Origin: a phage
Sequence record: PZ452591.1
Reading direction: 5' to 3' (one strand)
Length of the DNA stretch: 64,000 nt
The notes under the pieces are model-generated. The model had not been told where the DNA came from. It did no database searches and worked only from the letters and a program-made list of their open reading frames with translations. The stretch's first letter is position 1. Every line of letters starts with the position of its first letter. Shown here piece after piece: positions 10,985 to 57,102 of this stretch. Position numbers and translations under genes: made by a program.

Positions 10985-12403
10985 TTATGGATAGGTATAG
11001 ATGATACCAGTTTCTAAAGCAGTTTTATGAATGATGTATCCATTACGTGATTCTTGGACATCAACTTCTGGATAATCTTTCATCATCTTCTGAAGAGTGT
11101 AACGATGCAGGTAGTATTTACTATCTGGATCTTCAGTTTTCCAATCTTTACCTTCTTCAGTCATTTTTTGGATTTCATCCATGACCCACCAACCGCACCA
11201 GATGTAAGCTGAGCTACGGTGTGGAAGAGGATGAACATAAGGTAATTCACCTTCTGGTTCTGGAGCAACTTTATCAGTTACCTGAACTTGACCTTCTGCT
11301 GTAATAGTTTTGCTATCATAATCAGTAGCAGTAACAGTTGCAGTAACTTCAATAGTTTGACTTCCAATAGATGAGGTATCAACGGTGTATACATTAGTTG
11401 ACCCTTCTACAGGAGAAGAATCTTTCTTCCATGAATACGCAATTTGTGCTTCTTCTGGAGCATCAGTAACATTAGCAGTAAATGTAGCCGAAGCATCTTG
11501 CTGGACGTTAATAGAAGGAGGAGTCAATGTAACCTGTGGATTCATTGTCTTCTTATTAACCGTTAATGATACTTCATTCGAAGTAACTTCCTTTGCATCA
11601 TAATCTGCCGCAGTTACTTGGGCTACGCATTTAATTCTTTTTACTCCACTTGTAGTTGGAGTATAGCTAAATGTAGAGTTAGTTTCTCCACCAACTTGTG
11701 AATCATCTACATACCACTGATACGTAGCAGACGCTCCAACTGGTTGAGAAGCTAAGGCAGCAGTAAATTGAACTGGGGTTCCAATTACTCCAGCTGAAGG
11801 ACTATCGGGAGTTACTGCCAAAGTAGTTGTCTGTGTCTTTTTATTAACAGTCAGTGACACTTCATTAGAAGTAACGCTTAGTGCATCATAATCTGTTGCG
11901 GTTACTTGAGCCACACACTTAATTGTTTTAACTCCGCTTGTGGTAGGAGTGTAATTGAATGTAGCAGAAGTTGCTTCGACCACAGGAGAACCGTCAACGT
12001 GCCATTGATACGTAGCAGATGCGCCAGGTGGCTGCGAATCTAAGGCAGCGGTAAATTCAACAGCTGTTCCGATTACTCCTTCCGGAGGACTATTAGGAGT
12101 TACAGCTAAGGTAGTCGTTTGTGTCTTATTTTGAACTGTGATAGTTGTAGTAGCTTCTGCTGTTTCAGCATCAGTATCTGGAACTGTATTTGTTGCAACT
12201 ACTTTAATAGTCTTTTGACCGGCAGGTCCTTTTAATACATAATCAAAAGTTGCTTCAGCTCCATCTTGTGGAGCATCATCTACAGTCCAAGCATATGTAA
12301 TAGTTCCGCCTCCAGTTTCACCACTGGGTGTAGCAGTAAACTGCTGAGTTTGATCTATAACTCCAGTAGGTGTTTTAGGAGTTATATCAACTGTAAAAGC
12401 CAT
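10985..12403 (-). CDS. hoc: Head outer capsid protein Hoc, 472 aa, with an extra Ig-like domain
   Basis: N-terminus MAFTVDITPKTPTGVIDQT and C-terminal capsid-binding region PLPHRSSAYIWCGWW match T4 Hoc; contains two adjacent near-identical about 96-aa Ig-like repeats. Confidence 0.9.
   Translation of the reverse strand: MAFTVDITPKTPTGVIDQTQQFTATPSGETGGGTITYAWTVDDAPQDGAEATFDYVLKGPAGQKTIKVVATNTVPDTDAETAEATTTITVQNKTQTTTLAVTPNSPPEGVIGTAVEFTAALDSQPPGASATYQWHVDGSPVVEATSATFNYTPTTSGVKTIKCVAQVTATDYDALSVTSNEVSLTVNKKTQTTTLAVTPDSPSAGVIGTPVQFTAALASQPVGASATYQWYVDDSQVGGETNSTFSYTPTTSGVKRIKCVAQVTAADYDAKEVTSNEVSLTVNKKTMNPQVTLTPPSINVQQDASATFTANVTDAPEEAQIAYSWKKDSSPVEGSTNVYTVDTSSIGSQTIEVTATVTATDYDSKTITAEGQVQVTDKVAPEPEGELPYVHPLPHRSSAYIWCGWWVMDEIQKMTEEGKDWKTEDPDSKYYLHRYTLQKMMKDYPEVDVQESRNGYIIHKTALETGIIYTYP
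11553..12128 (-). repeat. Tandem direct duplication (2 x 288 bp) inside hoc encoding two Ig-like domains
   Basis: DNA motif ttattaac recurs at 11553 and 11841 (offset 288 bp) with long stretches of identity; protein repeats KTQTTTLAVTP...SNEVSLTVNKKT about 80 percent identical. Confidence 0.8.
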
Positions 12404-12412
12404 AAGTTATCC

Positions 12413-13093
12413 TTATTTTAATGTTACGAAAGAAGAGTTGCGTGTTTCACGAATTAAAACTGATCCATCACGATTAATGTAATAAATTAAGCTAAATAAA
12501 GTTTGGTGTGCTGACGCATGTTCAAAACTTGTTGGATGAGATTTCCAATCCGGAGTTTCAGCTATCCATTGATAAATCCACCAAGGAACAGTGCAGAATC
12601 CTGGATTTTTTCCAATCAGTTGAAGATTCGGACTAAAGTTTTCCGGAAGAGTAAATACAGACGGCTTTTCAGATTCAATAATCTCAGCTACAGCCTGTTC
12701 GAATTTTTCTTCAACAAAAGGAGTATCTTCAATCAAAACATCGGTATTTTCAGGAATTTTATCCGTTTCTACTACTTCAATTTTAATGTCAGATTTAACC
12801 GGAGAATCAATCAGAAGTGCTGCTTCTGGATTGACTTCTTCATCGTCATATTTTAATCCCTCTGCGGCATCAGCAGCATCAATTAAGTCTTTAATAGATA
12901 ACCCATCAGTCTCTGGCATAGGTTCACTAGCGAGCTTCTGGAGGGCTTCTTCAATATCAACAACGATATTATCAAAAGATTTATTCTTTTTGACCTTTAT
13001 ACCAAACTGTTCAGCATATTCAGCTAATTTAGCTTTAGCTTCTTTGTTATCATCAAGAGCCTTCAGCTCTGCAATATAATCTTTATCTATCAT
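12413..13093 (-). CDS. inh: Inh, inhibitor of prohead protease (226 aa)
   Basis: Size and position downstream of hoc as in T4; acidic protein. Confidence 0.8.
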   Translation of the reverse strand: MIDKDYIAELKALDDNKEAKAKLAEYAEQFGIKVKKNKSFDNIVVDIEEALQKLASEPMPETDGLSIKDLIDAADAAEGLKYDDEEVNPEAALLIDSPVKSDIKIEVVETDKIPENTDVLIEDTPFVEEKFEQAVAEIIESEKPSVFTLPENFSPNLQLIGKNPGFCTVPWWIYQWIAETPDWKSHPTSFEHASAHQTLFSLIYYINRDGSVLIRETRNSSFVTLK

Positions 13094-13106
13094 AATATTT
13101 CCTCAG

Positions 13107-13114
13107 TATAAATA
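13107..13114 (+). promoter_or_regulatory. T4-type late promoter TATAAATA (uvsW)
   Basis: Exact motif about 30 bp upstream of uvsW. Confidence 0.65.
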
Positions 13115-13143
13115 TAGATATATTTATTACATGGTATTTAGAC

Positions 13144-23508: not shown

Positions 23509-23561
23509 CCTCATGTTATGTCAGTAAGAATACTATAACACAACACGAGGGACTTGTAAAC
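23509..23561 (-). repeat. 53-bp direct repeat copy 1 (partner at 39034..39086)
   Basis: cctcatgttatgtcagtaagaatactataacacaacacgagggacttgtaaac versus copy 2 with about 3 mismatches. Confidence 0.8.
23525..23561 (-). promoter_or_regulatory. T4 early-promoter-like element (GTTTAC - 17 bp - TTATAGT) with leader and GAGGAA SD
   Basis: Minus strand GTTTACAAGTCCCTCGTGTTGTGTTATAGTAT...ACATGAGGAACACAAAATG. Confidence 0.6.
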
Positions 23562-25618
23562 TACATTTTGAACTTTTTAGACATTCCGTTGATGTTAACC
23601 AAAGAAGCCAAGATTTGAGAAACTTCGTTTTCCTCTTCTTTTGATTCTTCTACAAGGAATTGATTAAATCCAGCCATTGGACGAACTTCACCAGTTTCCA
23701 TTAGATGGTCTCCATCATATACTGATTCTTCTAATTGTTCAGAAGGAGGAACGATTGTACCTTCAATTAGATACTTGTTATAAGCAGTTTCTTTCATAAA
23801 GTACGTACTTACTTTATTAATCTTCAGTAAAATTCCACGCGGTAGAATAACTTCAGCTTCTGATGGAAATCCTGATAAATGACCTGGAACGATAACTTTG
23901 ATTCGCTCAGCTCCTTTAATTACCATACCCACGCTAGTTTCAGCATCTTCATTAGCATATGTAGAATGACTACCCATATGCATCAAATCTTCTGCATCAA
24001 CGGAATCTTCTCCTTCACCAGAAAATACTGCGCCGGAATCATCTAGAGCCATATAGTTTTTACCATGCTCACCGAAGATATTTGGTTTAAGCGATGTGGA
24101 TACGAAGTTCTTGAAATAAAACATTTTATTTTCAATGTTATGACGCAAAGTTTTAAAGGTAACTTCTTGTCCACGGTAAAGCGTAGTTCCTGGAGGAAGA
24201 ACTGAACCTTTAGCGAATGCAGAATCCAACGTCTCGATGTGCTTAATAGCACGTTCCATATATTCTTCACGGGTAGAATCTGGTTTACCCAAAAGGAACG
24301 AGTTCATTTCAACATATGAATCAGCACAATAATCTTCAATTACGTCAGATTCAGCCTGAGTTAATCCTTTTGGAGTTACTTCGGTGCTTGCGTATTCATA
24401 CGCCTGGGCGGCAGATTCATTAATCAATTTATAAATGCCATTCATGACGAATTGAATAATAGCTGTCTTTTCATCTGGCGTGGCTTTAGAACCTTTAACT
24501 AAATCATTAATAATTTTCTTAATAACATCAAAGCTATTAGAAATATTAATGTCAGCAAGATCGCTTAAAATTTTATCAGTTTTATAATCAAAGAATTCTT
24601 TATTCTTTAAATATTCTTGAGAACCTTGATATGTTATATCGCTCTGCAGCTTGATAGATGGATCACGTAAACGCGCATGGGCCAATGCGATATGATTTCG
24701 GAAGTTTTCTAGTTCATAATCGCTAGATTTAAAACGAGAAGCACTCCTCATACCACCAATAGCTCCTTTGCTGAAGTTTGAACCAATCTGGATAACGCCA
24801 GAGTTCATTGGTCCTTCTGCTTTATATACCGGAACTTTAGATTCAAACTCTTGATATTTCTTGGCAGCGAAGCTATCACCCTGAAGTGAAGCATCGACAG
24901 TAGAATATTGAGCTTGTGCTGCTAATCGACGACTAATTTTAGTTTTCTGAATAACAGCTTGATCCGTGCGCTTATCATTTTCTAAAGCAATAGAAGCAGC
25001 AACAGCAACAGCTTTAGGAACAGCATTACCTGTTTTAACGTCTACATAAACATCACCGACCTTTGATTCAACTTTTGTGAATAACTCAGTTGAAATAGGA
25101 GGTACACCTGGAATGTCTTCTAAATTGGCATTTTTACGGTAAACCATAATATATGCATACTTTTTATCATAATCCCAGATTTCCTTTAAAAGAACATATC
25201 GACCTGCTCCTTTAGTACGTACTAAACGGTCAGCAATAACTTGCATTTGACGAGCTGCGCCATTTGTTTTACTTTTTAGTACGCGGAATAAGCATGCGTC
25301 GATTTTATACTGCTTCATTGTTTGAAGAGCAGTATCAAAAACCGCATTAATGACGCCAATTGGATTTCCACCCAAGTTTCTAAGCTTAACCAGCGATAAT
25401 TTCTCGTTGACGCCTATCATTACGATATGCATCATTTTATCGCCTGGCTTAACGTTTTTATTTGTATCACCGCCAGAGGTGTATGTACAAAATCTAAATC
25501 CAGGAAGCACACTTTCTTCGCCGGCTTGAATAGCAAAAATTTGTGGTATTTTATGCTTAGGATTTAAGTTAACAACCGGCGCCGAAGCGCCGTCAAATAA
25601 TTCTGTAATAAGTTCCAT
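23561..25618 (-). CDS. Alt-like ADP-ribosyltransferase paralog (685 aa)
   Basis: Same length as and N-terminal 220 aa highly similar to alt (MELITELFD...); C-terminal ART-like region with LYRG, FVSTS motifs; central region diverged. Confidence 0.85.
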   Translation of the reverse strand: MELITELFDGASAPVVNLNPKHKIPQIFAIQAGEESVLPGFRFCTYTSGGDTNKNVKPGDKMMHIVMIGVNEKLSLVKLRNLGGNPIGVINAVFDTALQTMKQYKIDACLFRVLKSKTNGAARQMQVIADRLVRTKGAGRYVLLKEIWDYDKKYAYIMVYRKNANLEDIPGVPPISTELFTKVESKVGDVYVDVKTGNAVPKAVAVAASIALENDKRTDQAVIQKTKISRRLAAQAQYSTVDASLQGDSFAAKKYQEFESKVPVYKAEGPMNSGVIQIGSNFSKGAIGGMRSASRFKSSDYELENFRNHIALAHARLRDPSIKLQSDITYQGSQEYLKNKEFFDYKTDKILSDLADINISNSFDVIKKIINDLVKGSKATPDEKTAIIQFVMNGIYKLINESAAQAYEYASTEVTPKGLTQAESDVIEDYCADSYVEMNSFLLGKPDSTREEYMERAIKHIETLDSAFAKGSVLPPGTTLYRGQEVTFKTLRHNIENKMFYFKNFVSTSLKPNIFGEHGKNYMALDDSGAVFSGEGEDSVDAEDLMHMGSHSTYANEDAETSVGMVIKGAERIKVIVPGHLSGFPSEAEVILPRGILLKINKVSTYFMKETAYNKYLIEGTIVPPSEQLEESVYDGDHLMETGEVRPMAGFNQFLVEESKEEENEVSQILASLVNINGMSKKFKM

Positions 25619-25621
25619 GAT

Positions 25622-27679
25622 TTATCCTTGAACGAACTTGTAAGGCATGTTTGTAATATCTATGCAAGACGCAATAATTCCAAGAGATGATTCTACTTTC
25701 TGTTTAACATTTGATGAAACAAATGATGCAAAGTCAACTCTGTCTTCTATTTCAATATCACCTGTCATTGCAACTACTTCGCCGGTTTCCATTAAATGGT
25801 CTCCGTCATAGATTACCGATTCGGTGAGCTCTTCTGTGGTCATAACTTCAGCTTGAATAAGCTTGTTGTTAGTTTTAACTGTTCCATCATTGTAAGATGC
25901 ATCGGTTATTTTATTAACTTTGACCATTAATCCACGTGGCAAAATGACTTCCATTTCATTTGAAGGTGCTAAACTTCCACCTGGTAAAACAACATTGACT
26001 TTATCAGCCCCAGTAATAACCCATCCAATTCCAACTAAATTATCGCTAGAATTTACTAGTCCTTCATCAGTTTTATCAATAGAAACACTTAAACGCTTTT
26101 CGTCTGGTAAAACACCCACAGATGAATCAGTCATCCAGGTACCAAAAATATTTGGATATAATGATGTTGACACAAAATTTCTAAAATAAAAAACTCGATT
26201 TTTTACCAGTGCTTCATATATTGAAGGTAACATTCGTTGTGAACGATACAAAGTAATACCTTTTGGTAATCGTTCACCATTTTTAAAGGCAGAATCTAAA
26301 TTATCAATAGCTTTTTCTATATCAGATGCTGTCAAAATACTTGTACGCTCATCTGGATTATATAATCCCAAAAGAGCGTTATTTATGTCTACATATCCTG
26401 AACCTACGTATTCACGAATTCCGCGTTTTTGTGCCGGTGTGTATTTAGATGAATCTTTATTTTCGACTATAGGATGTAGTGACCATCCAGCGGTAAGAGC
26501 ATATCCACGCAATTCTCTTCGAATAATCTTTGTTTTTATTGCATTCCAAGAATTTTGTACTAACTCATTCACAGCATCTTGATTTAAATGCGAATGCTTG
26601 TTAATGTTTCTTTCTAACCAAGCACCTTTATATTTTTCTAAAGTATCATCAACTATAGAAGCAATAGTTTCTAAAGTTTTTATTGAAGTAATAGATTCTT
26701 TTCGTAATCTTTCTAAAGCTTTATTTTTTATTTCTGCATTAACATCAGATTCTTTATCTTCAGGAATTATAGAAGCTTCTCTGAATGCCATTCCAGCTGT
26801 AACACTACTAAGAGCATTCTCTAATGCAAATCCTGAAGTAGAAATAACAGTTAATTCATTAGCATCAGAAATTAAAGGAGCGTCAGCAGGTTTATTTAAT
26901 TCTGCTGCTGAAGCCTCAAATTTTTGAAACATCGGCGTTTCAAATCTAGAAGATTCCAACGACTGACTTTGCGCAATTGCTCTACGGGAAATTTTAACTT
27001 TAACGATTACAGCTTGGTCAGAACGTTTATCGTTTTCTTGCGCAATAGATGCTGCAATTGCCTCGTTTTTAGTTACTTGAGCTCCAGTATCTTTATTGAT
27101 ATAAACATCACCGACCTTCGATTCAACCTTAGTAAAGAGCTCGGTACTAATTTCCGGAACTCCTGGAATGTCTTCTAGTGATACATTTTTGCGATGTATA
27201 AGAATATATGCATACTTTTTATCATAATCCCAGAGTTCCTTAAGAAGGACGTATCTTCCACCTGAACGACTACGGATAAGTCTATCAGCAATAACTTGAA
27301 TTTGTCGAGCTTGGCCAGCAGTTTTAGACTTAAGAATACGAAGCATACAAGCATCAATTTTATACTGACGCATTGTTTGCATTGCGACAGTAAAAACTGA
27401 ATTGATATAATTAATCGGGCTTGGACCAAGACCTTTTAATTTAGCAATTGAACCTTTAGCAGTTAATGTAAAAGGAACAATGTGCATCATTTTATCGCCC
27501 ATTTTTAAATCGCGATTAGTATCACCTCCAGATGTATAGGTACATAAACGAAAGCCTGGTTGTTCAATTGCATCATCAACGTGAACTGAAAAAATTTGTG
27601 GTATTTTCTTCTTTGGATTTAAGTTTGTAATCGGAAGAGTAGTATCTTCGTCAAATAATTCTGTAATGAGTTCCATCAT
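25622..27679 (-). CDS. alt: Alt, virion-packaged ADP-ribosyltransferase (685 aa)
   Basis: Close match to remembered T4 Alt throughout (MELITELFDEDTTLPITNL ... NMPYKFVQG); two adjacent ATGs at the start. Confidence 0.93.
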   Translation of the reverse strand: MMELITELFDEDTTLPITNLNPKKKIPQIFSVHVDDAIEQPGFRLCTYTSGGDTNRDLKMGDKMMHIVPFTLTAKGSIAKLKGLGPSPINYINSVFTVAMQTMRQYKIDACMLRILKSKTAGQARQIQVIADRLIRSRSGGRYVLLKELWDYDKKYAYILIHRKNVSLEDIPGVPEISTELFTKVESKVGDVYINKDTGAQVTKNEAIAASIAQENDKRSDQAVIVKVKISRRAIAQSQSLESSRFETPMFQKFEASAAELNKPADAPLISDANELTVISTSGFALENALSSVTAGMAFREASIIPEDKESDVNAEIKNKALERLRKESITSIKTLETIASIVDDTLEKYKGAWLERNINKHSHLNQDAVNELVQNSWNAIKTKIIRRELRGYALTAGWSLHPIVENKDSSKYTPAQKRGIREYVGSGYVDINNALLGLYNPDERTSILTASDIEKAIDNLDSAFKNGERLPKGITLYRSQRMLPSIYEALVKNRVFYFRNFVSTSLYPNIFGTWMTDSSVGVLPDEKRLSVSIDKTDEGLVNSSDNLVGIGWVITGADKVNVVLPGGSLAPSNEMEVILPRGLMVKVNKITDASYNDGTVKTNNKLIQAEVMTTEELTESVIYDGDHLMETGEVVAMTGDIEIEDRVDFASFVSSNVKQKVESSLGIIASCIDITNMPYKFVQG

Positions 27680-27730: not shown

Positions 27731-27917
27731 AATAATCTAGTGGTAAGAGAGTACGATATATTTCAAACTTTGGACCTTTTTCATAGGCATCAAATGTTTC
27801 TGTAAATTTATTATAAGCATATGCATCTACAAATTCGAGAACGACTTGTGATACAGAAGTAGAAACATCTCCACCTTCTTTTTGAGCTACGACAACTGTT
27901 TCTAAGTAAGCTTTCAT
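27729..27917 (-). CDS. Hypothetical protein, 62 aa
   Basis: ORF between ligase and alt; overlaps ligase 3' end by 4 nt; terminator hairpin at its stop. Confidence 0.55.
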   Translation of the reverse strand: MKAYLETVVVAQKEGGDVSTSVSQVVLEFVDAYAYNKFTETFDAYEKGPKFEIYRTLLPLDY

Positions 27918-29377
27918 AAACCAGTTACCTCATGAAAATCACCAAATACATCCTCGAATGTATTAGCTTTAGTTTTATCTTCACGTAAACGAATCGCAAT
28001 CGGAAGAAATAATTTGACGTAATCAGTGCGGCCATCAGATTTTAACCAACCGTTACATTCGCACTCTAGAATTTTTCCAATATAATAATTTTGGTTTTCC
28101 ATAATGCGAGTACGGTCAAGTTCATGTGATTTTACGCCGACTTTATCTTTTAAGCCTGAACCGGCATTTACCTTAATTTTTCCACACTCTGACTCAAGAA
28201 TAAATCCACCTGCTTTAGTAGGGTCTTTACGGTGAGGATAAATTCCTACAATTTTTAAATCAACATCAATTACTTCTTTAAATTTATAGAGATTTTTCGA
28301 ACGAGCATTTTCCCATAATCCATCGATATTTTTGAGAATAATACCTTCAAGACCTTGGTCAATATACTTTTTATAAATTACCTTAGCTTCATCTAGGTTA
28401 TTTACTACCTGGTTTTCAATTAAAATTACTTTATCATAGCCTGATGTCATTTGTTCTAATTTAGAAAAACGTACATCATATTTCAAGCGAAATGCTGGAA
28501 GACCGTATATTTCTACCAACGGGACATAATCCCAGACCTGAAACTTCATGCATTGAGCTTCTTTTTCGGAAATGGTTCCCTTTAAAGATTTATTGGCGAT
28601 TCCATTAGAAGCAGTACGTGATTCAGCTACTTCGGCGAATTCTTTAACTTTACTGTTTTCAGGATAAGCATCAAAAAGAAAATCTAAGCCTTCTGGCTCC
28701 TTTTTAACTTGCTCATGGTATACCAATTCGCCATCAATTAACACACCTTCTGGATGAATCTGGCGGGCCTCAGCGGTCATTTTGATTAATTCTTCCTTAA
28801 GAAGATCTAATCCTAAATATTCATTGCCAGCTCGTGATAAAAGACGAACATCATCTAATTCATCACCTCTGACTTCGGCAAAGCACCGAGCCCCATCAGC
28901 TTTTAACTGGGCAAAAGCTGGAAATTTGATATTCTTATTAATGCCTTTTTCATCATAAGAACTTGCCAGCATTTGAGGTTGTTCAGGAATTAAACCTGGC
29001 CAAACTTTGTTTGCAATAGATACTGAAGCACCGCATTCAAGGTCTCGCATCATCACTCGACGCAAGACTTCAACATCATCCTTTTTACCATCGGCGATAT
29101 ATCCAGTTAATTCCTCAATTGCCGCATTTCCAGTCAATTTCCGAGTAGCTAACGTGAATTCAATGAAGTCAAGCATATCGGTAAGAGTCAACATTCCAAA
29201 ACTCTGGGTAGCAATACCAGGTTTAGGCCATTTCTTGATATAATACTGCAATCCACGAGAATAAGTCAGACGATATACCCGTTTAAGCAATTCATTATCT
29301 TTATTCTTTTCAAGAATTGCTTGCTTCTGCTTAGTTGAACCAATAGATGCTATTTCGTTCAGAATTTTAAGAATCAT
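27914..29377 (-). CDS. 30: ATP-dependent DNA ligase gp30 (487 aa)
   Basis: Matches T4 DNA ligase; adenylation motif KADGAR. Confidence 0.95.
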   Translation of the reverse strand: MILKILNEIASIGSTKQKQAILEKNKDNELLKRVYRLTYSRGLQYYIKKWPKPGIATQSFGMLTLTDMLDFIEFTLATRKLTGNAAIEELTGYIADGKKDDVEVLRRVMMRDLECGASVSIANKVWPGLIPEQPQMLASSYDEKGINKNIKFPAFAQLKADGARCFAEVRGDELDDVRLLSRAGNEYLGLDLLKEELIKMTAEARQIHPEGVLIDGELVYHEQVKKEPEGLDFLFDAYPENSKVKEFAEVAESRTASNGIANKSLKGTISEKEAQCMKFQVWDYVPLVEIYGLPAFRLKYDVRFSKLEQMTSGYDKVILIENQVVNNLDEAKVIYKKYIDQGLEGIILKNIDGLWENARSKNLYKFKEVIDVDLKIVGIYPHRKDPTKAGGFILESECGKIKVNAGSGLKDKVGVKSHELDRTRIMENQNYYIGKILECECNGWLKSDGRTDYVKLFLPIAIRLREDKTKANTFEDVFGDFHEVTGL

Positions 29378-55100: not shown

Positions 55101-55978
55101 ATTCTCAGCGTAATAAAGCTGGAAATATAACATTTAATATCAACGGTACAGTAACACCGATAAATGTTAATGCTTCAGGAACATTGAATGCAAATGGTGT
55201 AGCAACATTTGGTAATTCAGTCACTGCAACTGGTGAAATTATTTCTCGAAGCGCAAATGCTTTCCGTGCTATTAGCGGAAATTATGGTTTCATTGTTCGC
55301 AATGACGGGTCAGTAACGAATTTTATGCTTACTGCATCGGGTGATCAGACTGGCGGATTTAATGGATTGCGTCCTTTAGCTATTAATAATGCATCTGGCC
55401 AAGTAACGATTGGTGAAAGCTTAATCATTGCAAAAGGTGCTACTATAAGTTCGGGTGGTTTGACTGTTAACTCGAGAATTCGTTCTCAGGGTACTAAAAC
55501 CTCTGATTTATATACCCGTGCGCCAACATCTGATACAGTAGGATTCTGGTCAATCGATATTAATGATTCAGCCACTTATAACCAGTTCCCGGGTTATTTT
55601 AAAATGGTTGAAAAAACTAATGAAGTGACTGGACTTCCATACTTAGAACGTGGTGAAGAAGTTAAATCTCCTGGTACATTGACTCAGTTTGGTAACACAC
55701 TTGATTCACTTTACCAAGATTGGATTACTTATCCAACGACCCCAGAAGCACGTACCACTCGCTGGACACGTACATGGCAGAAAACCAAAAACTCTTGGTC
55801 AAGTTTTGTTCAGGTATTTGACGGAGGTAACCCTCCTCAACCTTCAGATATAGGAGCGATCCCATCTGATAATGGAATAATAGGTAATCTTACTATTCGC
55901 GATTTCTTGCGAATTGGTAATGTTCGCATTATTCCTGACCCAGTGAATAAAACTGTTAAATTTGAGTGGATTGAATAA
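52109..55978 (+). CDS. 34: Long tail fiber proximal subunit gp34 (1289 aa)
   Basis: 1289 aa as T4 gp34; internal repeats; late promoter upstream. Confidence 0.95.
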   Translation: MAEIKRKFRAEDGLDAGGDKIINVALADRTVGTDGVNVDYLIQENTVQQYDPTRGYLKDFVIIYNNRFWAAADNIPKPAGNFNRIRWKALRTDAVYTTVSSGPYQLKSGEAISVDTSVGNDIEFTLPPSPLDGETVIIQDIGGKPGINQVKINSSNQSIVNFRGEQVRSVLMTHPKSQMVFIFNNRLWQMYIADYSREAAIVTPSTAYQAQSNDFIVRRFTSAAPINVKLPRFANHGDIINFVDLDKLNPLYHTIVTTYDETTSVQEVGTHSIEGRTSIDGFLMFDDNEKLWRLFDGDSKARLRIITTNSNIRPNEEVMVFGANNGTTQTIELQLPTDISVGDTVKISMNYMRKGQTVKIKAAGEDKIASSVQLLQFPKRSEYPPEAEWVTVQELVFNGETNYVPVLQLAYIEDSDGKYWVVQQNVPTVERVDSLNNSTRARLGVIALATQAQANADLENSPQKELAITPETLANRTATETRRGIARIATTAQVNQNTTFSFADDLIITPKKLNERTATETRRGVAEIATQQETNTGTDDTTIITPKKLQARQGSESLSGIVTFVSTAGATPASSRELNGTNVYNKNTNNLVVSPKALDQYKATPTQQGAVILAVESEVIAGQSQEGWANAVVTPETLHKKTSTDARIGLIEIATQSEVNTGTDYTRAVTPKTLNDRRATESLSGIAEIATQVEFDAGVDDTRISTPLKIKTRFNSTDRTSVVALSGLVESGTLWDHYTLNILEANETQRGTLRVATQVEAAAGTLDNVLITPKKLLGTKSTEAQEGVIKVATQSETVAGTSANTAVSPKNLKWIVQSEPTWAATTAIRGFVKTSSGSITFVGNDTVGSTQPLESYEKNGYAVSPYELNRVLANYLPLKAKAVDSNLLDGLDSLQFIRRDIAQTVNGSLTLTQQTNLSAPLVSSSTATFGGSVSANSTLTISNTGTATRLIFEKGPQTGTNPAQTMTVRVWGNQFSGESDTTRSTVFEVSDETSSHFYSQRNKAGNITFNINGTVTPINVNASGTLNANGVATFGNSVTATGEIISRSANAFRAISGNYGFIVRNDGSVTNFMLTASGDQTGGFNGLRPLAINNASGQVTIGESLIIAKGATISSGGLTVNSRIRSQGTKTSDLYTRAPTSDTVGFWSIDINDSATYNQFPGYFKMVEKTNEVTGLPYLERGEEVKSPGTLTQFGNTLDSLYQDWITYPTTPEARTTRWTRTWQKTKNSWSSFVQVFDGGNPPQPSDIGAIPSDNGIIGNLTIRDFLRIGNVRIIPDPVNKTVKFEWIE

Positions 55979-55986
55979 GAGGTATT

Positions 55987-57102
55987 ATGGAAAAATTTAT
56001 GGCAGAGTTTGGACAAGGATATGTCCAAACGCCATTTTTATCGGAAAGCAATTCAGTAAGATATAAAATAAGCATAGCGGGTTCTTGCCCGCTTTCTACT
56101 GCGGGACCATATGTTAAATTTCAGGATAATCCCGTTGGAAATCAAACATTTAGTGCAGGTCTTCATTTAAGAGTTTTTGACCCTTCTACGGGAGCATTAG
56201 TTGATAGCAAGTCATATGCTTTTTCTGCTTCAAACAATACAACATCTGCCGCTTTTGTCAGTTTCATGAATTCTTTGTCAAACAATAGACTTGTTGCTAT
56301 ATTAACTAGCGGAAAGGTTAATTTTCCTCCTGAAGTGGTATCTTGGTTAAGGGGAGCAGGAACTTCAGTTTTTCCATCAGATTCAGTATTGTCAAGATTT
56401 GACGTGTCATATGCTGCTTTTTATACTTCTTCTAAAAGAGCTATTGCATTAGAGCATGTTAAACTAAGTAATAGAAAAAGCACAGATGATTATCAAACTA
56501 TTTTAGATGTTGTATTTGATAGTTTAGAAGACGTCGGAGCTACAGGATTTCCTAAAAGAACATACGAAAGCGTTGAGCAATTTATGTCTGCGGTTGGAGG
56601 AACTAATAATGAAATTGCGCGATTGCCAACTTCAGCTGCTATAAGTAAACTTTCTGACTACAATTTAATTCCTGGTGATGTTCTTTATCTTAAAGCACAA
56701 CTATATGCTGATGCTGATTTACTTGATCTTGGAACTACAAATATATCTATTCGTTTTTATGATGCATCAAATGGATATATTTCCTCGACCCAAGCTGAGT
56801 TTACTGGGCAAGCTGGGTCTTGGGAATTAAAAGAAGATTATGTAGTTGTTCCTGAAAATGCAGTAGGATTTACGATATATGCACAAAGAACTGCCCAAGC
56901 AGGTCAAGGCGGCATGAGAAATTTAAGCTTTTCTGAAGTATCAAGAAATGGCGGCATTTCAAAACCTGCCGAATTTGGCGTCAACGGTATTCGCGTTAAT
57001 TATGTCTGCGAATCGGCTTCACCTCCAGATATAATGGTACTTCCTACACAAGCCTCTTCTAAAACTGGCAAAGTGTTTGGGCAAGAATTTAGAGAAGTTT
57101 AA
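55987..57102 (+). CDS. 35: Long tail fiber hinge connector gp35 (371 aa)
   Basis: Matches T4 gp35 MEKFMAEFGQGYVQTPFLSESNSVRYKISIAG. Confidence 0.93.
   Translation: MEKFMAEFGQGYVQTPFLSESNSVRYKISIAGSCPLSTAGPYVKFQDNPVGNQTFSAGLHLRVFDPSTGALVDSKSYAFSASNNTTSAAFVSFMNSLSNNRLVAILTSGKVNFPPEVVSWLRGAGTSVFPSDSVLSRFDVSYAAFYTSSKRAIALEHVKLSNRKSTDDYQTILDVVFDSLEDVGATGFPKRTYESVEQFMSAVGGTNNEIARLPTSAAISKLSDYNLIPGDVLYLKAQLYADADLLDLGTTNISIRFYDASNGYISSTQAEFTGQAGSWELKEDYVVVPENAVGFTIYAQRTAQAGQGGMRNLSFSEVSRNGGISKPAEFGVNGIRVNYVCESASPPDIMVLPTQASSKTGKVFGQEFREV

Follow-up and report, generated by a model that had tools for sequence, protein, structure and literature searches.

A two-unit array of Ig-like domains in the Hoc protein of a Tequatrovirus phage as a common allele of a modular capsid decoration protein

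Background

Hoc of phage T4 is a monomeric and dispensable protein of the capsid, of which up to 155 copies are present per head (PMC3012670, PMC10385173). Its C-terminal domain (residues 281-376) docks at the centre of the gp23* hexamer and its Ig domains form a fibre of approximately 180 angstrom (PMC10385173). Large N-terminal fusions to Hoc leave its binding to the capsid unimpaired (PMC3012670). Domains 2 and 3 of the Hoc proteins from T4 and RB49 attach to E. coli surfaces (PMC10385173), and Hoc of phage PNJ-6 binds MUC2 via E29 and G33 of domain 1, residues that were reported to be essential (PMC11150434). The fucose of MUC2 is bound by different Hoc sites depending on the phage, namely by domain 1 in PNJ-6 and by S183-T185 of domain 2 in PNJ-9 (PMC11150434, PMC11853027). 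Both the number and the sequence of the Ig domains vary within the family, with one to ten domains per protein (Fokine et al. 2023; PMC10385173). The Hoc-like protein of the Klebsiella phage PMBT63 (468 aa), for instance, possesses an extra Ig-like domain compared to T4, which the authors place at residues 109-209 (PMC13435897, 2026).

Here we describe the hoc gene of the phage with the sequence record PZ452591.1, of which a stretch of 64,000 nucleotides, hereafter called the window, was analysed. A first-pass annotation had proposed that Hoc of this phage comprises 472 aa instead of the 376 aa known from T4, that the difference stems from a recent duplication of an Ig-like domain, and that the two resulting units are near-identical at the DNA level and form a recombination-prone array that may expand or contract.

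Results

The ORF list, phmmer and synteny place the hoc coding sequence, with 472 codons and a stop, on the minus strand at positions 10985..12403. It is a single intact ORF with an unbroken frame, and a phmmer search of all solved structures returned T4 Hoc (5vf3_Z, 376 aa) as the sole match, with an E-value of 4e-219. Across 25 kb, Tequatrovirus phages like vB_EcoM_G2540 and teqdroes share 97-98% identity with the window. The comparison of annotated loci, which also included that of RB3, revealed the gene order rnlB-24.2-24.3-hoc-inh-uvsW, as it is found in G2540, teqdroes and UGKSEcP1. The gene occupies the 24.3-hoc-inh-uvsW position expected of hoc, and being flanked upstream by inh and uvsW and downstream by 24.3, 24.2 and rnlB, it has the surroundings of the T4 hoc locus. 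The single ORF and the alignment to T4 Hoc agree with the gene name and with both protein lengths given in the first-pass annotation.

Directly upstream of hoc lies a 226-aa ORF on the minus strand (positions 12413..13093), which encodes the prohead protease inhibitor and is named Inh in SHFML-11, RB3 and teqdroes. No exact copy of the T4 late-promoter motif TATAAATA was found on the minus strand between 12404 and 15167 (hoc start to 15160). Since the gap between hoc and inh is only 9 nt, hoc may be co-transcribed with inh or may use a non-canonical promoter. The spacer between inh and uvsW (positions 13094-13143) has a length of about 50 nt and does not contain segE. This is different in T4 strain 147, where the homing endonuclease gene segE is located just past inh, on the side opposite from hoc. 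Among the forces behind the exchange of alleles around hoc could be co-conversion driven by SegE.

A second tandem pair is present elsewhere in the window. Two adjacent ORFs of 685 aa each, at positions 23561-25618 and 25622-27679 on the minus strand, are 42% identical to each other and both carry the ADP-ribosyltransferase exoenzyme domain PF03496, so that they represent tandem Alt-like paralogues. They are located just upstream of a 487-aa ORF at positions 27914-29377. T4 itself presumably possesses a single alt gene.

Hoc of the window aligns to 5vf3_Z in two pieces (phmmer), with residues 1-106 of the query corresponding to residues 1-106 of T4 Hoc and residues 189-472 corresponding to residues 93-376, and therefore equals T4 Hoc plus exactly one domain of 96 aa. 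The protein begins with Ig-like domain 1 (aa 1-92, positions 12128..12403, minus strand), the orthologue of T4 Hoc domain 1, which aligns to T4 residues 1-92 with 89% nucleotide identity and a dS of 0.22. It is followed by unit A (aa 93-188, positions 11840..12127, minus strand), the domain that is extra compared to T4, which is one copy of the repeat seen by the repeat finders and an A-lineage copy of Hoc domain 2. Unit B (aa 189-284, positions 11552..11839, minus strand) is a B-lineage copy and the orthologue of T4 Hoc domain 2, with 93% nucleotide identity and a dS of 0.19 to the T4 unit. The last Ig-like domain (aa 285-376, positions 11276..11551, minus strand) is the orthologue of T4 Hoc domain 3 and aligns to T4 residues 189-280. 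The capsid-binding domain at the C-terminus (aa 377-472, positions 10988..11275, minus strand) is equivalent to T4 residues 281-376, to which it aligns end to end with almost no differences (96.9% nucleotide identity, dN 0.009), and nearly all of its columns are invariant among 30 homologues. The first-pass annotation is right that both ends of the protein match T4 Hoc; the additional length is a single Ig-like domain, in frame and a paralogue of T4 domain 2.

With regard to residues known from adhesion studies, domain 1 carries E29 and G33 (within ETGGG; Hoc aa 1-33, positions 12403-12305), while T4 has a Q at position 29. SLT motifs are present twice in the protein, at aa 183-185 and aa 279-281. 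Outside the genus, the C-terminal domain of the Mosigvirus vB_EcoM_LNA2 (L027) is about 98% identical at the amino acid level to that of the window (positions 10988-11275). This likeness points to either extreme constraint on the capsid-binding module or its recent exchange.

The Ig-like status of the protein rests on its fold, as the curated gathering thresholds of the Pfam Ig models are not reached: the scores were 27.3 versus 30 for Ig_3, 22.5 versus 27 for Ig_2 and 19.3 versus 23.7 for I-set, with the sub-threshold matches of Ig_3 and I-set located at aa 289-373. The PKD model PF00801 exceeded its Pfam cut-off (33.1 versus 23.5 bits), with the best stretch at aa 195-253. An HMM built from the four N-terminal segments of the window protein itself recognised all of them as homologous domains of approximately 92-96 aa. 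In an AlphaFold2 model (30 homologues), four beta-sandwich domains are arranged in series, and most residues of aa 1-375 exceed a pLDDT of 90; domain 1 is modelled as a beta-sandwich at a pLDDT of about 90 and the last Ig domain as a beta-sandwich as well, while the C-terminal domain is modelled poorly (pLDDT below 65). The top Foldseek matches to this model in the PDB are four-domain Ig strings, namely Dscam, ICAM-5 D1-D4 and Sidekick. PKD score, internal HMM, AlphaFold2 model and Foldseek matches together correspond to the linear string of Ig domains that is typical of the N-terminal part of Hoc.

Two repeat finders detected a tandem direct repeat of 288 nt with 2.0 copies and 76-77% identity at positions 11546-12127. 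In codon phase, the units extend from nt 12127 to 11840 (aa 93-188) and from nt 11839 to 11552 (aa 189-284). The first-pass annotation had correctly seen two 288-bp units, but its span of 11553-12128 is shifted by one base relative to the codon-phase span of 11552-12127. Its estimate of about 80% protein identity is matched by 76 of 96 identical residues (79%), and the motifs quoted in it are present. In contrast, the units are far from near-identical at the DNA level: 218 of 288 nucleotides are identical (75.7%), 45 of the 70 differences fall on third codon positions, and the longest identical run in register measures 14 nt. Across the window, adjacent 288-nt blocks share on average 28.7% identity (sd 4.1%), and as the A/B pair is the maximum of this distribution, the repeat is not a chance match.

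Between units A and B, dN is 0.13, dS is 1.22 and dN/dS is 0.11 (Nei-Gojobori). Orthologous units of the phages compared differ by a dS of only about 0.1-0.36. Unit B has a dS of 0.07 to the unit of RB3 (97% nucleotide identity), and the rest of hoc has a dS of 0.14-0.36 to T4. Unit A is separated from the T4 unit by a dS of 0.83, but from the first units of G2540, L003 and UGKSEcP1 and from the single units of teqdroes and L006 by a dS of only 0.14-0.36. Near-identical DNA, especially at synonymous sites, as it is expected for a recent tandem duplication, was not found. Because the dS between A and B far exceeds that between orthologous units, the event that gave rise to them is not recent. 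By these distances, A and B are to be regarded as old paralogues with synonymous sites near saturation. In both units, purifying selection appears to act on the beta-strand framework, whereas the loops vary. In the modelled structure, loops are more variable than strands (0.54 versus 0.23 bits, p = 0.03).

Unit lineages were typed on eight and then on twelve hoc genes. At the protein level only one diagnostic column passed (unit position 48, P versus Q), typing being poor since the units are mosaic, and DNA sites were used instead. At 21 diagnostic nucleotide sites, three deep lineages separate cleanly. Lineage A comprises the first units of the window, G2540, L003 and UGKSEcP1 as well as the single units of L006 and teqdroes. 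The second units of the same four genes and the single units of RB3 and T4 constitute lineage B, and the third unit of UGKSEcP1 together with the single unit of fFiEco06 constitutes lineage C. The dS is 0.07-0.36 inside the lineages, 0.8-1.4 between A and B, and about 0.5-0.9 from C to A and B. The window gene is all-A and then all-B at the diagnostic sites and, with its 472 aa, belongs to the two-unit (A-B) allele class; compared to G2540 and L003, its unit A has a dS of 0.14-0.34 and its unit B a dS of 0.19.

Protein clustering of 161 units, in which the typing is blurred by mosaicism, assigned 68 clusters to A, six to B (including T4), six to C and 22 to A-B (including the window), next to A-C (three clusters), A-A (three), B-C (one), A-B-C (three) and a few mixed three-unit forms. 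A sliding-window DNA comparison resolved the T4 unit into a C/B head, a B body and an A tail. Other single units are likewise composite, with a B head and an A body in teqdroes, the order B-A-C in RB32, the order A-B-C in L004 and an A/B patchwork in SNUABM01. L004 fits the order of A head and B tail that is expected of a simple unequal crossover, whereas T4, teqdroes and RB32 show other orders. Recurrent variants were found in different units at unit positions 12-16, 22-24, 34, 46-55, 62-69 and 78-84.

Exchange also reaches beyond the genus. The protein cluster P0100 (567 aa) is a chimera that consists of a Tequatrovirus domain 1 and unit A, followed by domains 2-4 of the Mosigvirus (LNA2) type with 95-98% identity, and P0080 (472 aa) carries a Mosigvirus-type domain in the place of unit B. 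Judging from these chimeras, whole Ig cassettes are shuffled between genera at the conserved ...SLTVNKK border. Hoc of Mosigvirus LNA2 itself has 471 aa and four Ig domains, and since its domain 2 is no closer to one of the units A, B and C than to the others (53-54%), these three lineages diverged inside the Tequatrovirus lineage.

Grouped by length, the 120 best protein clusters comprise Hoc proteins of 376 aa (79 clusters), 472 aa (29 clusters) and 568 aa (seven clusters), plus a few near-variants, and these lengths correspond to one, two and three units. A colinear one-piece match to the 576-nt array was present in 21 of 60 evenly spaced GenBank phage matches. Extrapolated from this 60-row sample, this suggests a two-unit array in about 35% of approximately 605 Tequatrovirus-like records. 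The first-pass annotation had conceded that its reading would fall if T4-like Hoc proteins normally had 472 aa, and with this share of two-unit records that is partly the case. One-piece matches were counted because non-colinear pieces of single-unit genes get joined otherwise, as for T4, T2 and T6, which were listed as "2 pieces, 100%"; counts from a 200-nt query across the A/B junction and totals based on at least 80% coverage were dropped for this reason. RB27, PP01, the Yersinia phage PST, SHFML-11 and G2540 are among the two-unit phages, while T4, T2, T6, RB3 and RB32 possess one unit.

Other complete genomes carry the same 1419-nt gene with 92-97% identity. The flanking genes of the window are about 98% identical to those of G2540 (two units) and of teqdroes (one unit) alike. 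Within hoc, the identity to these two phages is 92-96% across the Ig region, but again 98-99% in the C-terminal domain. The exact Hoc protein of the window, searched as a query with stop codon, was absent from a collection of 15 billion proteins, and the nearest protein cluster (P0009) is 98% identical at the amino acid level. As judged from these comparisons, hoc of the window is a common and unremarkable allele of a decoration protein already known to be modular, for which T4 is not the norm.

The closest nucleotide match to the gene is hoc of SHFML-11 (L002, NC_030953.1, positions 55334-56753), with 97.3% identity and 1420 nt versus the 1419 nt of the query. RefSeq annotates only a 930-nt CDS there and the frame is broken in the ORF scan, which suggests an indel of 1 nt, be it an error of sequencing or a true frameshift. 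Tequatrovirus hoc sequences with 85-91% identity were also encountered in MG010123.1 (Staphylococcus phage SAJK-IND, 32 kb) and PV654520.1 (Pseudomonas phage vB_PSGBLB0006), both of which are probably contaminated or mislabelled submissions.

Discussion

Overall, hoc of the window is very probably an intact Tequatrovirus gene that carries the common A-B allele of an Ig-cassette array with variable copy number at Hoc domain 2. The protein is composed of Ig domain 1, unit A, unit B, the last Ig domain and the near-invariant C-terminal domain. By homology, the latter would bind at the centre of the gp23* hexamer, with the four Ig domains projecting as a fibre. The array exists in a single-unit state (A, B, C or mosaics) as well as with two units (mainly A-B) or three units (A-B-C), and recombination or gene conversion would reshuffle the units at conserved borders, between ...VTSNEVSLTVNKKT and QTTTLAVTP....

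The reading given in the first-pass annotation, that is, a recent in-frame tandem duplication of a T4-type domain 2 in the lineage of this phage with near-identical, unstable repeats as its result, would account for the tandem arrangement, the preserved frame, the exact period of 288 nt and the single unit in T4. It is nevertheless very improbable, as the two units share only 75.7% of their nucleotides and no identical run beyond 14 nt, their dS of 1.22 is six times the distance from B to its T4 orthologue and well above the 0.14-0.34 seen between orthologues, and the same A-B order with orthologous units recurs in hundreds of phages. The array does vary between one, two and three units across phages, as had been suggested, but on an evolutionary time scale only; frequent slippage in a stock is unlikely, because A and B share no uninterrupted stretch of identity beyond 14 nt. 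A mis-assembled repeat that adds one unit to hoc deserves hardly any consideration. Tandem repeats are indeed prone to mis-assembly, but units with 76% identity are unambiguous for assemblers, the frame is intact, and independent complete genomes contain the same 1419-nt gene at 92-97% identity. It is just as hard to believe that targeted hypervariation by a template/variable repeat pair resembling that of a diversity-generating retroelement is at work here, even though there are two related repeats whose variation lies mostly in surface loops. The mismatches have no adenine bias (u1 C23/T17/A16/G14, u2 A24/T19/G17/C10), comprise 41 transitions and 29 transversions and are mostly synonymous third-position changes, and both copies lie within one ORF. 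A mechanism of this type was excluded for the A/B divergence, since the mismatches are spread over all four bases in both copies.

Two further explanations concern the direction in which the array evolved; the orders in T4, teqdroes and RB32 differ from that of a simple A-B unequal-crossover deletion. We lean slightly towards a multi-unit array that is ancestral, with single-unit alleles such as that of T4 being reductions, and we favour this over an assembly from single-unit alleles because the unit order is consistent. In the latter scenario, which we regard as rather unlikely, long-diverged A-only and B-only alleles would have been combined during co-infection by unequal or illegitimate recombination, with a short shared border (AA.AAGACA, encoding NK(K)T) providing the join, and the product would have spread by recombination. 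The clean A-only (L006), B-only (RB3) and C-only (fFiEco06) alleles nest within the diversity of the array units, and cassette exchange at domain borders is frequent, even between genera; both observations favour such an assembly. However, the 22 A-B, three A-C, one B-C and three A-B-C clusters all keep the same order, and two-unit arrays of the type B-A, C-A or C-B were absent among these clusters. A-B-A (two clusters) and A-A (three clusters) do occur, although protein-level typing is blurred by mosaicism. The order fits an ancestral array with losses, a weak argument given the few independent origins. The equal distance of the Mosigvirus domain 2 from A, B and C (53-54%) also speaks against an assembly from single units, as it implies that the three lineages share one ancestor in the Tequatrovirus lineage. 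The ancestral array can be extended to a more specific proposal, which we consider possible but put forward only tentatively: the domain-2 position might be an ancestral, ordered A-B-C array, of which present phages carry all ordered subsets (A, B, C, A-B, A-C, B-C and A-B-C) and mosaics, with T4 Hoc as a reduced mosaic and with unit number and loops as a fast-evolving, selected trait.

Concerning the function, the near-identical C-terminal domain suggests that Hoc of the window would bind as a monomer at the centre of the gp23* hexamer. The additional domain would lengthen the predicted fibre by about one Ig domain, that is by approximately 4-4.5 nm on the approximately 18 nm of T4. The domain-2 surface, including the two SLT motifs, would be displayed twice, so that weak adhesion to mucin glycans or to the surface of bacteria would change in reach and avidity, as would the antigenicity. 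If the array is indeed ancestral, the number of units and the content of their loops might tune reach, avidity and antigenicity of the fibre for adherence to mucus or cell surfaces.

The significance of these observations is modest. The 376-aa Hoc of T4, the reference used in structural work, in phage display and for the mucus-adherence model, is only one of several natural architectures and one with a minority unit type. In approximately a third of the sequenced relatives the Hoc fibre would be extended by one Ig domain, and in a few by two. The Hoc scaffold seems to tolerate the insertion of whole domains at the border of domains 1 and 2. Published work places mucin binding on a Hoc domain that differs between phages and reports that E. 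coli surfaces are bound by domains 2 and 3 of T4 and RB49 Hoc, so that the number of units is a variable worth controlling when adherence, immunogenicity or pharmacokinetics of therapeutic T4-like phages are compared.

Variation in the number of Hoc Ig domains has already been published, and hundreds of 472-aa Hoc proteins from Tequatrovirus phages are deposited and annotated. The 376/472/568 series and the A, B and C lineages are thus a refinement and not a new kind of feature; in the searchable library we found only general statements on domain number and no paper on this series or on these lineages. T4 Hoc (376 aa; PDB 5VF3, 8T1X, 8T9R) represents the same gene at the same locus, but possesses only one domain-2 unit, which is a mosaic of mostly B sequence ending in an A-type tail, whereas the window protein contains unit A as an addition between domain 1 and the T4-type domain 2. 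The 472-aa Hoc proteins of vB_EcoM_G2540, SHFML-11, RB27, PP01 and PST have the same A-B architecture and length as that of the window (92-97% nucleotide identity), and the 472-aa Tequatrovirus proteins differ from it only by substitutions at the level of alleles, mostly in loops. UGKSEcP1 (OV877085) and its relatives go one step further with 568 aa: the first two units of UGKSEcP1 are orthologous to A and B of the window (dS 0.36 and 0.35), and the third, unit C, is absent from the window and occurs alone in fFiEco06. In a more distant group, L007 and L008 from IMG/VR (471-472 aa) resemble the window protein in having four Ig-like domains and a capsid-binding domain, a plan that takes up 468-472 aa in four-Ig Hoc-like proteins of other genera. 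Their extra Ig domain, however, is due to a separate event in which the last Ig domain was duplicated (58-77% identity between domains 3 and 4) and not domain 2. For the Hoc family at large, as exemplified by RB49 Hoc (3SHS) and the ten Ig domains in the Serratia phage Muldoon, published comparisons span distant phages, whereas the polymorphism of one, two or three units described here exists among phages that are approximately 97-98% identical in their flanking DNA.
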